From: Escherichia coli
GTDB taxonomy: Bacteria > Pseudomonadota > Gammaproteobacteria > Enterobacterales > Enterobacteriaceae
DNA: 64,000 bases
Assembly (NCBI RefSeq): GCF_041248615.1
Contig: NZ_CP158426.1
Reading direction: 5' to 3' (one strand)
Part shown: positions 33,001-39,000 of the stretch, piece by piece
Numbering within the stretch: the stretch's first letter is position 1
Layout: each line of letters opens with the position of its first letter
Position numbers: made by a program

Positions 33001-36000
33001 CTGGAAGCCTTAATCCCGCTGCTGCCGCCGGAGTATGCCAGCGGCGTGATGTGGGCGCAGAGTAAGTTCAGTTAACCTGGTGCTCATATTCTTACCGGAT
33101 TCGGCGTGAACGCCTTATCCGGCTTAACGCTCCGGTACCCATTGTAGGCCTGATAAGACGCGTCAAGCGTCGCATCAGGCACAAATGTCTAATGCCTACG
33201 ACTACAGCGAAATACAGGTCCCCGCTTCGCCCGCCAGCGTCTCTTCAATCCGCGATAACGCCCCAATCCACGCAGGTTTGCCACGGCTTCTGACATAGCC
33301 ACTCACCGCCGTTACCTTCGGCCCCATCGAACCATCGGCTTTGGCAAATGGCGCTAACTCATCCGGTGTGGCACGGCGAATGGCGCGTTGCTGCGGCGTT
33401 CCCCAGTTTTCATAAACCGCGTCAGCATCGGTGAGGATCACCAGCCCATCGGCGTTAATCTGCTCAGCGAGCAACGCAGCGGCGAGATCTTTATCAATCA
33501 CTGCTTCACTCCCTGCCCCGTCTTTCGTCACAGGCACACCGCCGCCGCCACTGCAAATCACCACATGCCCCTCTTTGAGCAACAACTCAATGGCTTCGCT
33601 GTCGAGAATTTTACGCGGTTGCGGAGACGCCACCACCCGGCGCAAATATTTACCATCACGTTTCATCTGCCAGCCATAAGCCGCTTCCAGTGCCTCTTGT
33701 TCTTCTGGCTGATAAACCGGACCGATAAACTTCTCTGGCTGCAAAAACGCCGGATCATCAGGCGAAACCTCAATGCGCGTCAGCACCGTCGTGACAGGCG
33801 GCATCTGCGGCTGTGCGCTCAAGCTGTGCGCTCAAGCTCTGCGCCAGCATATAGCCAATCATCCCCTGGCTTTCCGCTACCAGCACATCCAGCGGATACG
33901 GTTCTACCTCTTTCCACGCCAGATTCTGTAACGCCAGCAGCCCCACCTGCGGCCCGTTGCCGTGAACAATCGCCAGCCGATAAGAACGGGCCAGGCGCGT
34001 CAACGCGGGTACAGCACTGGCAATATTGCGATATTGATTTTCTGCCGTCAGCGCTTCGCCGCGCTGGAGTAAGGCGTTGCCCCCAAGAGCCACAACCAGT
34101 GTTTTCATGGTTTTCCTTGTAATAATTGTTGACCAAGCCAGAACCCCAGCAGCGTATCTGCCCCTGACGTATGCCCCAGCGCCAGCAGCGAATCAATCGC
34201 AACAGCGGTACGTTTCGGGCAACTCAGAGCATGGACAAAGTGCAGGAGTAGCGAGGCGAAATATCCTTGCGCGGCATAACGTAAATAACTGACGCTCACC
34301 GCTGTGGTAACGAGTTGAAGATTGTCGGAACAGGCAAAAAACTGGCGACCGGAGCGCGTATCTAAAGCGCCATAATACCAGGCCGCCAGCAGCATTCCGC
34401 TCAGCGTGTCATCATGACTCGGCGTTAATCCCGGACCTTTGCCCAGCCAGTGCCGCCAGTCGGTCTTCACGCCATTGAGCGCGGCCTGAAAACAGTGGCG
34501 AAACTGGCGTAATTCAGCAGGAAGCGGATCGCCTGCCGCCAACGCCAGTGGCCCGAAAAGCCCGGTTTCCTCCGCGCGTTGCATCCATGCAGCTGCAAGC
34601 GGTTGAGGATGCGCAGGCGGCGTAATACGCAGCAAACAATAACGCTGTGACTGTTTAACCGTGAAACGTCCGAGGCGAATCCCTTGTGCCACAACCTGCG
34701 GTTGTTCATTGCCGCATAATCCACCGCATAACGCATCGAATTGCGCGCGGCGAAGCACCCATCCTCCGGGGCCGAAACCACTACCCTGACGATGCAGTGT
34801 GAACAATTCACCGCTTTCCGTCATCAGGTTAATCGCCCGCCGCCACACGCCCGCTAACCGCCAGGACTGGCGATAATTCGGTGCACTACGGCTGGCAAGC
34901 AGAGGATGGATGATCGTCATTGTGCGTTCCTCAACCAATCCCCATGCTTTCAGCCAGTGCTTCCAGCGCCTGCTCAAAGCACGCCAGCGGTGCCCGCACG
35001 GTGCCTGCGCCAATCTGCCCGATCCCCGCCTCTTTATGGGCGATACCGGTATTGATGAGTGGCGTAATGCCGGTTTCTACCACGCGACGAATGTCCAGTC
35101 CCAGGCACGCGCCCTGAAAATCCCAGCTTGGGATCTGCAACTGCATATTGCGTTCAAGGAAGATTTCCGCCATCTCTTCAGATACCGCTCTGGCCGCTTC
35201 CATGCCACCCGCACCGACAAAGCGCGTTACGCCAGGCGCTGCGATCATCGCCGCTCCGCCAATACCAAAGGTTTCGGTAATCGCGCTGTCGCCCATATCC
35301 GGGTTCGCCTGCTCCTGCGAGAAGCCAGTGAAAAACAGACCTTGCGGAGTGTTTACAGGCGCAGTAAACCAGCGTTCACCCAGCCCGCTTACCCGAATCC
35401 CGAACATATTGCCGTTGCGGGTCATAGCCGTGACGATGCTGCCTGCGCGGATCATCGCACCAGCATCCATCGCCGCCTTGCAGTAAGCCATCGCGAGGTT
35501 AAGGAAGAACTGATCGGTCACGCTGAGGAAATCCATCACTTCGGCGATGCTCTGTTTATCATGATCAAGGCGAGCAATTTGTGGGGCCAGCGCACGCATT
35601 AACAGTGCTGAGGAAGCAATATTGCGTTGATGGAACTCATCGCCCATGGTAATGCCCTGCGCCATCATCGCGGTAAGATCGATACCGCGCTCCATGCGCC
35701 CCAGCGCCGCGCTTAATACTGGCATTAACACATCGCGCATCCAGCGATGGCGAGTCAGGACATCTTCGCCGTAAGCGCCAAAACGCATCACTTTGCCGAT
35801 ACCTTCGTTGAGGTTGCAGTACGCCCGGTTGCCGTCGGTCACGTTCTCGACCACCAGCATCGGCATACTGGCAGAAGTAATGCCGCCCATTGGCCCGACA
35901 GCATTCACATGGTGACAAGGAATGAAGTTCACTTTCCCCTGCTCCAGTATTGCCAGCGCCTGCGCTTCATCTTTCGCCCAGCCTTCGAACAGACATGCGC

Positions 36001-39000
36001 CCACGCACGCCCCTTTCATGGGTCCGGTCATCTCCTGCCAGCGCATTGGCGGCCCGGCGTGAAGCAGTGTTTTGCCCTCGTTTAGTTCGCTGATAAGTGA
36101 AGAAGCCGGTTGCACATCCAGCCAGTGTGGACGAGCACGACGAATTTGTTCGATAACCGCAGCATTGGCTTGCGCCACTGATGTAAACATGGGAACCCCT
36201 TATTGCAAACGTTCTAATAAACGAGCCAGTTTTTTATTGCCGCCGGCGACTGGCGACCATTGGTAATGCACAACCGGTTTGCTGGCGCTTTGTAGCTCCA
36301 GCGCAAAGTTGCGTAATCCGATGTTAATCACGGCGACGTTTTCCAGTAATGACGGTGTGTGTTGCTGTGTGGCAGGCGAGAGCGGATGAATTAACGCTGC
36401 CGCCAGCAAGGTGGCTTCCGGTAGCGAACTCACGACCGCAATCCCCGCATCTTCCAGCGTGGCGATTTGCTGCGAGCGGCATTGCGGGTCACTTTCGGTA
36501 CCTGTCACCGTGGCAATGGCGTACAGCGGTTGGCTGTCTGAACGCGCGGCACAGGCTTTTTGCCAGGCGCTCACCAGCGAGGCGGCAGGATCGGCGGTCG
36601 CGCCGAAGCCAATCACGACATCAAGTAGCAATACGCGCACTGACGGTTTAGCGCCGAGATCGGCAATTAACTGGTTGCGTAAGGTTGGGTCGATCATCGG
36701 ATGGGGACGCCCGACGGTGTAGAAATCATCGCCCAGGTCGAGGATCTGATGTCCGTCGGCGTCGAGCATCATGCCATGTTGATGGGTATCGTCGGCTTCC
36801 ACGCCAAGGTGTCCGGCAAGTAATCCCGCCGCTTCAGCAGCCAGCGTACCGCCGGTATACAAACCGCAAATAAATCCGCTGCTGACAGGTGCTATTGCGT
36901 TACGTCGCGCCGTGACGCGTGAAAGCAGGCAAGCCAGGCGTGCGGCCTCATCAAGCGAGGAGGCAAACCAGACATTCTCGTCGCGGGCCACCGCCGGGGT
37001 ATAACCTAAAAACAGCGCCACCGTCGGTTTGCCAGTTGCTTTCATGGCATTAACAATTTTCAGACGCACAGCTTCGGCAGGTGGTTTTGAAACAAATGCC
37101 AGCACTTCGCTTTTCTCGTCGGCGCTTAACATTTCCAGCGCCGTTAGCGCACTGATGCCGCCCACTTCACGGCTGAGGTCGCGCCCGCCAAGACCAATCG
37201 CGTGAGTAATTCCCTCACCTGCCAGCGCAATCTGCGAACACAGTTCCTGAATCCCGGTACCGGAAGCGCCAATGACGCCAATGTTGCCTTCCGGTATCAC
37301 GTTAGCAAAAGCCAGCGGCGTGCCGGCAATCATCGACGTACCGCAGTCCGGCCCCATCACCAGCAAGCCTTTTTCCCGCGCGCGGGTTTTAAGTTGGATT
37401 TCATCTTCCAGCGTGACGTTATCAGAGAACATCATCACGTTGAGGTTGCGATCCAGCGCCTGATTCGCCAGCTCCGCCGCATACTCGCCAGCCACTGAAA
37501 TCAGCGCCAGACTGGCGTCGGGTAATTTCTGACAGGCACTGTCCCAGCGACGCACCTGCGTCAACGCCTGGCTGCTGCCTGACCCCTGCGCCAGTTGTTT
37601 TAGCGCCTCTTCAAGCTGTTGCATAATCGCCTGCGCGATCCCCGCATCCGCCGCTTCGCTACGAATTGCCACGCAAATATCGTTCGGCGTGGCGTTATTA
37701 AAATCGTCATGCCAGAAACCTGTCGTCTCTAATAACGCTTTATTGGCGGGCGTACCCATCATTACAGAAACATCATCAACATTTTCTGATTCGCTTAGTT
37801 TTCGTGAAATAATCATTAAACTGACCGAATCCTGAAAACACCCTTTTTTAATAAAGGCGTGGATCATAACAACTCCTTAAAAATTGCACCCATGGCAATT
37901 GCACGAGCAGTGTTAATGTGGCGATTACGGTATCGATGACAACGAGTAAATAAGGTGATAAATATCACACAGGGATTATTAACAAAAGAATTCAAATAAC
38001 CGCCAGGCTATTACGTGTTATTTTTTAATAAGCGTGGTTGTTTTAAAAACCAGGTTAAAAGCGAGCGGATTATCAAATAAATTCTAACTATATTTTTTTG
38101 CCTGTCTGGATCACATAATCCAGATATTTTCCCTGTATGTTAATTGCAGTCATGCTTCACACCGTCGTTAAAAAGGAAGACAGATGAAAATCAGTCGGGA
38201 AACACTCCACCAGCTAATCGAGAATAAACTCTGCCAGGCTGGGTTAAAACGTGAGCACGCTGCAACCGTGGCTGAAGTATTGGTTTACGCCGATGCCAGA
38301 GGGATCCACTCTCATGGCGCGGTGCGCGTGGAATACTACGCGGAACGCATTTCAAAAGGCGGCACCAACCGCGAACCGGAGTTTCGTCTTGAGGAAACCG
38401 GGCCGTGCTCGGCAATTTTACATGCCGACAATGCCGCCGGACAGGTCGCGGCGAAAATGGGTATGGAACATGCCATCAAAACCGCCCAGCAAAAAGGCGT
38501 TGCGGTGGTCGGTATCAGCCGGATGGGTCACAGCGGCGCAATCTCTTATTTTGTACAGCAGGCAGCTCGCGCCGGGTTAATTGGCATTTCGATGTGCCAG
38601 TCCGATCCAATGGTGGTGCCGTTTGGCGGCGCGGAAATTTACTACGGTACTAACCCACTGGCCTTTGCCGCGCCGGGAGAAGGCGACGAGATCCTTACCT
38701 TTGATATGGCGACTACCGTACAGGCATGGGGAAAAGTGCTCGACGCCCGCTCGCGTAATATGTCTATCCCGGATACCTGGGCGGTCGATAAAAACGGTGC
38801 ACCAACAACCGATCCATTTGCAGTTAACGCCCTGCTCCCTGCCGCCGGACCGAAAGGGTATGGCCTGATGATGATGATTGACGTCCTCTCAGGCGTCTTA
38901 CTCGGCTTACCATTCGGGCGACAGGTTAGTTCGATGTATGACGATTTACACGCCGGGCGTAATTTGGGGCAATTACATATCGTTATTAATCCGAACTTTT

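Follow-up and report, generated by a model that had tools for sequence, protein, structure and literature searches.

An intact allG (ylbE) beside a frameshifted allK (ybcF) in the allFGHK operon of Escherichia coli NRZ14408

Introduction

In Escherichia coli, the operon allF-allG-allH-allK (formerly fdrA-ylbE-ylbF-ybcF) completes the anaerobic breakdown of allantoin by carrying out its final steps. Purified AllF-AllG-AllH shows oxamic transcarbamylase activity, oxamate production needs all three genes (Kim & Kim 2024, PMC11326118), and K-12 MG1655 takes allantoin to oxamate in an allG-dependent manner (PMC11326118). The fourth gene, ybcF, shares a transcript with fdrA-ylbE-ylbF and specifies a catabolic carbamate kinase (Kim & Kim 2022, PMC9843812); when it alone is deleted, allantoin flux changes only slightly (PMC9843812). 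AllF-AllG-AllH together are the oxamic transcarbamylase and turn oxalurate into oxamate and carbamoyl phosphate, and AllK uses carbamoyl phosphate and ADP to yield ATP, CO2 and NH3. The old MG1655 reference (NC_000913.2) showed a frameshift in ylbE; resequencing found MG1655 and K-12 stocks to be ylbE+ (PMC4759930, PMC3045373). The operon, the ylbE gene and its biochemical role have already been published (allFGH in 2024, allK in 2022), and to that extent the present observations matter little; the practical lesson here is one of annotation.

Results

The 64,000-nucleotide stretch of E. coli DNA analysed here (the window) is identical over all 64 kb to NZ_LT599825.1, the record of E. coli NRZ14408. 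The minus strand carries the gene order ybcF-ylbF-ylbE-fdrA at positions 33202-37867, divergent from allD-allC-allE, with intergenic gaps of 9-10 nt and a 4-nt overlap between ylbF and ybcF. The first gene of allFGHK, fdrA (allF; 36200..37867, minus strand), is intact at 555 aa, as judged from its ORF, the annotation, the Pfam families CoA_binding and Ligase_CoA and a match to NCBIfam NF004760 at 1036 bits. The ylbF gene (allH; 34105..34920, minus strand) is likewise intact at 271 aa, matches Pfam PF11392 AllH (E=3.6e-29) and carries a private P91S substitution (window 34650). The remaining allantoin regulon genes in the window are annotated as intact. A promoter and terminator scan of positions 33000-38300 returned sites no more numerous than in shuffled sequence.

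As had been originally predicted, ylbE is an intact ORF: the ORF listing places a single ATG-to-TGA frame of 419 codons at 34931-36190 on the minus strand, and the chance of an open frame this long is roughly 2e-9 (a rough estimate, (61/64)^419, from the length of ylbE). Directly after the fdrA stop codon, 7-8 nt before the ATG, there is a purine-rich AGGGG. The product matches Pfam PF06545 'AllG' (formerly DUF1116) over profile positions 1-215 of 215 at 326.3 bits (cut-off 27; E=1e-97), and alignment with MG1655 YlbE (YP_009029994.1) showed 416 of 419 residues identical and 0 gaps, the three substitutions relative to the K-12 protein being E86K, H214S and Y344F. Together with WP_001589832.1 in the source record and a homologue in PDB 3CLQ, these matches identify the gene as allG, encoding the AllG subunit of oxamic transcarbamylase (oxamate carbamoyltransferase). 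Judged by its sequence, the copy in the window is unremarkable: it is intact and presumably works. Almost every sequenced E. coli has ylbE intact, so this is the usual condition of the species. An operon-spanning 5-kb query matched over at least 80% of its length in 5,402 of 5,426 genomes. By analogy with the K-12 proteins, from which the activity is known, AllF-AllG-AllH of the window would be expected to form an oxamic transcarbamylase (oxalurate + Pi <-> oxamate + carbamoyl phosphate).

The disruption that had been reported for the neighbouring ybcF is real. ybcF (allK, the catabolic carbamate kinase gene; 33202..34108, minus strand) is a frameshifted pseudogene of 907 bp, compared with 894 bp in MG1655, and alignment to MG1655 and comparison with isolate 362, the nearest complete genome, locate the cause in a 13-bp tandem duplication (AGCTTGAGCGCAC x2; 33813..33838, minus strand). 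Its limits can be placed only to within 3 nt, since the AGC that follows is also how the unit begins. The reading frame shifts after residue 95 of 297, so that 95 native residues are followed by 17 out-of-frame residues and a stop, and two ORFs result, one of 112 aa (33770..34108) and one of 206 aa (33202..33822). Against the carbamate kinase model NCBIfam NF006926 (PRK09411 equivalog), the 112-aa piece scores 190.4 bits over model positions 1-98 and the 206-aa piece 415.7 bits over positions 92-296; an AllK equivalog would be one unbroken chain of about 297 aa with a score over the 416-bit cut-off, and the window holds only the two pieces. RefSeq also flags ybcF as 'frameshifted' in NZ_LT599825.1, where it is the sole gene so annotated in the 64-kb window. 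The downstream frame (33202..33822) begins with TTG and could in principle give AllK residues 92-297. This frame seems to lack a convincing ribosome-binding site, and no split carbamate kinase is known to work.

To count carriers of the duplication, a junction-spanning 46-mer was used, with flanks so short that neither could start a match by itself. It was found in one of 5,426 complete E. coli genomes, NRZ14408 itself. A 121-bp query across the duplication proved unusable for this count, as its flanking pieces were joined into full-coverage matches in genomes without the duplication. Among assemblies and read-set assemblies, the 112-aa truncated product was matched on 17 contigs; five of these 17 places, among the matches listed, belong to five samples (GCA_014863425.1 and four Logan runs) and are 100% identical to the window. 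Because the duplication recurs at 100% identity in contigs of other samples, it is not an assembly error. These other samples show that the lesion is real, but they may be re-sequencings of one laboratory-distributed strain and do not imply a circulating clone. Isolate 362, which lies 5 SNPs and the 13-bp duplication away over 41 kb, is without the duplication and has a 297-aa ybcF, and the same is true of four further near-identical assemblies. Since these relatives keep the 297-aa gene, the ybcF lesion is private, recent and of one clone; it is not a lineage-level alternative inactivation. The original prediction, that this lineage had inactivated a different member of the gene group, was thus right about the disruption of ybcF and overstated its scope, given one carrier in 5,426 genomes and nearest relatives without the lesion.

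The same prediction had contrasted the intact ylbE with a frameshifted pseudogene in K-12 MG1655. In the current MG1655 record (NC_000913.3), however, ylbE (b4572) is intact, with 1260 bp and 419 aa, and the contrast is therefore gone; this is the outcome that had been named beforehand as removing it. A K-12 frameshift did exist in the old MG1655 reference, and the W3110 RefSeq record (NC_007779.1) still has it, with ylbE at 1259 bp and marked 'frameshifted', but for the current MG1655 it is outdated. Relative to MG1655 v3, the W3110 gene lacks one G from a G5 run (gene positions 252-256) and carries a synonymous G114A. A four-way alignment places this site at 35935..35939 of the window (minus strand), where the window reads GGGGA (Lys86), MG1655 v3 reads GGGGG (Glu86), and W3110 and the old MG1655 reference read GGGG, one base short. 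Among the four aligned ylbE sequences, the G deletion is present only in W3110; the window gene is complete at 1260 bp, with its frame open. The G4 allele was counted with a short allele-spanning query of the same design as the ybcF 46-mer, and is carried by 4 of 5,426 complete E. coli genomes: W3110 and the genomes CIT, LIM and CAR, which are K-12-sized and have the allele at the same coordinate. A text search pairing ylbE with U00096.3 gave no match. The K-12 ylbE pseudogene belongs to a superseded MG1655 version and the W3110 record, and is unsuitable as a comparison baseline.

Discussion

Taken together, these data very probably reflect an intact and normal ylbE, a K-12 pseudogene that is a one-base difference of an old reference, and an operon whose sole defect is the 13-bp duplication in allK. 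The most probable origin of the duplication is replication slippage involving the short GCGCA-N-AGC repeats, which are 13 bp apart in the ancestral sequence. Truncation after residue 95 of 297 removes the whole C-terminal lobe of AllK, and its activity is probably lost. The lesion should leave allFGH unaffected, since no gene of the operon follows allK. From the published deletion phenotype, the physiological effect of the frameshift is expected to be mild, and the lesion serves as a minor strain marker for NRZ14408.

A broader reading is that the ATP-yielding oxalurate branch may be undergoing loss or rewiring in NRZ14408 and its clone, with the allK frameshift first and AllH P91S and AllC G357R alongside, the three changes being linked in a whole anaerobic allantoin branch that decays under relaxed selection or is rewired under positive selection. 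Within an 8.1-kb stretch the window strain differs from isolate 362 in three places; polarised against isolate 362 and MG1655, every one of them is derived in the window strain and alters protein, and AllC G357R adjoins the conserved His-Asp of the SGAGHDAQ motif. However, the window strain and isolate 362 differ by 12 SNPs and 2 indels over about 94 kb, a density that predicts about 1.2 for 8.1 kb, and three are not significant (P(>=3) of about 0.12, a post hoc Poisson estimate). Solved homologues carry Gly, Ser or Tyr at AllC position 357, so that it is not invariant, and the ybcF deletion alone barely alters allantoin flux (PMC9843812). We consider this reading improbable, both as an account of linked changes and as a statement about the clone. 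Were it true, allantoin-derived carbamoyl phosphate would feed only pyrimidine and arginine synthesis and not ATP, and the change would be an adaptive or relaxed-selection one in a hospital-adapted multiresistant clone. Clustering of the private allK, allH and allC mutations was also considered as a main claim, and was dropped because the background density makes three in 8.1 kb unremarkable.

The simpler account, a normal ylbE and an isolated lesion in allK, also has to be weighed against the possibility that K-12 truly lost ylbE while the window lineage lost ybcF instead, and that the oxalurate branch would thus have eroded more than once. This view draws on the frameshifted ylbE of the W3110 record and of the CIT, LIM and CAR genomes and on the frameshifted ybcF of the window strain; however, ylbE is intact in the current MG1655 record and in resequenced MG1655 and K-12 stocks, and the conversion of allantoin to oxamate by MG1655 depends on allG. 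Both alleles are rare (4 and 1 of 5,426 complete genomes), the operon query matched over at least 80% of its length in nearly all genomes (5,402 of 5,426), and ybcF is intact in the nearest relatives of the window strain, all of which makes alternative inactivation highly improbable. Hardly credible at all is that ybcF is really intact and that its frameshift in the NRZ14408 record comes from faulty sequencing or assembly: only one complete genome carries it and the record is a single 2016-era assembly, but a mixed-sequence 13-bp tandem duplication is untypical of homopolymer-type read error, the same lesion lies on 17 contigs with five listed places (one from a separate NCBI assembly, four from Logan assemblies of independent read sets) 100% identical, and no gene but ybcF is annotated 'frameshifted' across the 64-kb window.

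The locus has close described counterparts. The window AllG shares with K-12 AllG (YlbE, b4572; PMC11326118) its 419-aa length, 416 of 419 residues with no gaps, and PF06545. The two loci share the order allF-allG-allH-allK, divergent from allD-allC-allE; however, allK is intact in K-12 and frameshifted in the window. The frameshifted ylbE of NC_000913.2 (the old MG1655 reference) and NC_007779.1 (W3110) concerns the same locus and G-run, but those sequences lack one G, a lesion that the window is without. Like K-12 AllK (YbcF, b0521; PMC9843812), the window gene stands last in the operon, with about 97% nucleotide identity, and its two fragments together cover PRK09411; the K-12 gene is full at 894 bp, whereas the window gene has 907 bp and a product cut at 95 native residues out of 297. 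For YlbE, PDB 3CLQ ('uncharacterized protein', DUF1116 family) is a homologue over residues 2-414 (E=3.3e-112), a likeness in sequence to a protein of another organism that was deposited without a function. Because 3CLQ is a full-length sequence homologue, a solved fold exists for the YlbE family.

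The ylbE reading frame and its operon

The original prediction placed an intact 419-aa ylbE at 34931-36190, and the ORF listing of the window contains exactly this ORF, on the minus strand and with an ATG start. The ylbE start lies 9 nt past the fdrA stop codon, with a purine-rich AGGGG 7-8 nt 5' of the ATG, and ylbF starts 10 nt beyond the ylbE stop, with GAGGA upstream. Because the chance of an open frame this long is roughly (61/64)^419, or about 2e-9, the length of the ylbE frame far exceeds chance. A profile search matched the product to Pfam PF06545 "AllG" (E=1e-97), and the structure of a full-length YlbE homolog has been solved (PDB 3CLQ, an entry that labels the protein uncharacterised). 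In the RefSeq record NZ_LT599825.1, ylbE is annotated as intact, under the product name "YlbE family protein" (WP_001589832.1).

By annotation, ylbE belongs to fdrA-ylbE-ylbF-ybcF, currently named allF-allG-allH-allK (33202-37867, minus strand), which is divergent from allD-allC-allE, with the remaining allantoin regulon downstream. Profile searches across these genes recovered AllG, AllH, CoA_binding and Ligase_CoA in FdrA, and carbamate kinase for both pieces of ybcF. Purified AllF-AllG-AllH has been shown to be the long-sought oxamic transcarbamylase, which interconverts oxalurate with oxamate and carbamoyl phosphate, and anaerobic production of oxamate from allantoin requires all three of allF, allG and allH (Kim & Kim 2024, PMC11326118). 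The catabolic carbamate kinase is the product of ybcF, which is transcribed together with fdrA, ylbE and ylbF and whose deletion shifts flux only slightly (Kim & Kim 2022, PMC9843812). The gene family, the operon and the enzyme have all been published already, and nothing about them is new here.

In the source strain, NRZ14408, allF, allG and allH are intact, and allK, the last gene of the operon, is truncated. Judging from the published work in K-12, NRZ14408 should still turn allantoin into oxamate and carbamoyl phosphate, and would lack the harvest of ATP from carbamoyl phosphate by the AllK route; the carbamoyl phosphate would instead enter pyrimidine and arginine synthesis, the fate suggested for it in the K-12 mutant deleted for ybcF (PMC9843812).

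Disruption of ybcF by a tandem duplication

The neighboring ybcF was also predicted to be disrupted, and the ORF listing shows it as two separate ORFs, one of 112 aa and one of 206 aa; with the exact ylbE ORF found and ybcF in two pieces, both halves of the observation are confirmed. RefSeq NZ_LT599825.1 likewise describes ybcF as "carbamate kinase, frameshifted". Alignment with MG1655 ybcF revealed a single 13-bp insertion, a perfect tandem duplication of AGCTTGAGCGCAC (33813-33838). The native frame continues to Gln95 of the 297-aa full protein and is followed by 17 aberrant codons and a TGA; the 112-aa ORF covers positions 1-98 of the carbamate kinase model, and the downstream 206-aa ORF covers positions 92-296. 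In the ancestral sequence, GCGCAgAGCttgaGCGCAcAGC, short direct repeats occur at a spacing of 13 bp. Such repeats are the usual substrate for slipped-strand duplication, and the ybcF duplication probably arose by this mechanism.

A junction-spanning 46-mer detected the duplication in only one of 5,426 complete E. coli genomes, the source strain itself. The lesion is not an assembly artefact, since 17 contigs encode precisely this 112-aa product; the five places listed among them, one from a different NCBI assembly (GCA_014863425.1) and four from Logan read-set assemblies, match the window at 100% identity. Isolate 362 (NZ_OW967178.1), the nearest complete genome, differs from the window over 41 kb by only 5 SNPs and the 13-bp duplication and has an intact 297-aa ybcF, and ybcF is also intact in four further assemblies with an identical YlbE and 1-2 mismatches. 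Thus, the lesion belongs to one clone and is not a trait of the lineage.

Strain background and neighboring changes

The window corresponds to positions 3843666-3907665 of NZ_LT599825.1 and is identical throughout, the 33500-38500 interval matching at 100%. NRZ14408 is a clinical isolate with an mcr-1 gene, and is reportedly described in its genome paper as carbapenem- and colistin-resistant. Only 2 of the 5,426 complete genomes are at least 99% identical over 33500-38500, the others with a match reaching at most about 98.6%; therefore, the NRZ14408 lineage is rare among complete genomes. In the public assembly collection, 1,000 index blocks list precisely this YlbE. The fdrA-ybcF region (33500-38500) has 5,429 matching places, two of them in records classified as plasmids.

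Two derived, non-synonymous G>A changes, polarised against isolate 362 and MG1655, are private to the window strain: P91S in AllH (34650) and G357R in AllC (40323), the latter adjoining the SGAGHDAQ motif's conserved His-Asp. These two changes and the allK duplication all fall inside 8.1 kb. The window strain and isolate 362 differ by 12 SNPs and 2 indels over about 94 kb, for which we estimate about 1.2 differences per 8.1 kb and a Poisson P(>=3) of about 0.12, so the clustering of the three changes is not significant at background density. Solved homologs have Gly, Ser or Tyr at the AllC position, which is thus not invariant. A meaningful cluster in one pathway segment is improbable.

Outside the operon, the siiEA giant adhesin gene (about 20.8 kb) lies just beyond the window and is intact in NRZ14408 (7249-28023 of its sequence L008) and frameshifted by a 1-bp deletion in isolate 362 (12414-33187 of L009); with ybcF broken in the one and siiEA in the other, each of these near-identical strains has its own private pseudogene. 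An IS1397 (IS3-like) element after ybbJ (63579-64000) is absent from isolate 362. That isolate in turn carries an insertion missing from the window, an integrase-core gene located between mnmH and dinQ (40990-42036 of the comparison sequence L007). The annotation of 1-12600, directly upstream of nfrB, is a mosaic of Rhs-repeat core proteins, some full and some partial, together with a PAAR fragment and small hypothetical genes, the last of which are possibly immunity genes; this mosaic is broken by an IS3-family and an ISAs1-family transposase. At 18989-20747, envY, tRNA-Arg and fimZ directly adjoin. On the K-12 map, this interval presumably holds the DLP12 prophage, appY and ompT, all of which appear to be absent here. 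The gene order in PMC10652928 supports that K-12 placement.

Comparison of ylbE with K-12

The intact ylbE had been set against a ylbE annotated as a frameshifted pseudogene in K-12 MG1655. In the current MG1655 record (NC_000913.3), ylbE (b4572, YP_009029994.1) is intact at 1260 bp, and its product is identical to the window YlbE at 416 of 419 residues without gaps (E86K, H214S and Y344F), so the contrast falls. Such an annotation does exist: the W3110 RefSeq record has a 1259-bp ylbE marked "frameshifted". In a four-way alignment, two differences separate W3110 from MG1655 v3: the G5 run at gene positions 252-256 is one G short in W3110, and G114A is a synonymous change. The Lys86 codon of the window (35935-35939, GGGGA versus GGGGG) lies in the same G run from which one base is missing in the old K-12 sequences; in the window, the substitution reduces the homopolymer from G5 to G4 and leaves the frame unchanged.

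Among 5,426 complete genomes, only 4 contain a 44-mer that is specific to the G4 allele, namely W3110 plus three genomes of K-12 size (CIT, LIM and CAR), which have it at the same coordinate. A ylbE+ allele has been published for other K-12 stocks (PMC4759930, PMC3045373). Since MG1655 v3 is also intact, an intact ylbE is overwhelmingly the normal state, and the "K-12 pseudogene" is a superseded sequence version or the property of a few stocks. The suggestion that this lineage inactivated a different member of the gene group from K-12 is therefore only partly supported: the ybcF lesion is real but confined to one clone, and the K-12 side of the contrast reflects an outdated annotation.
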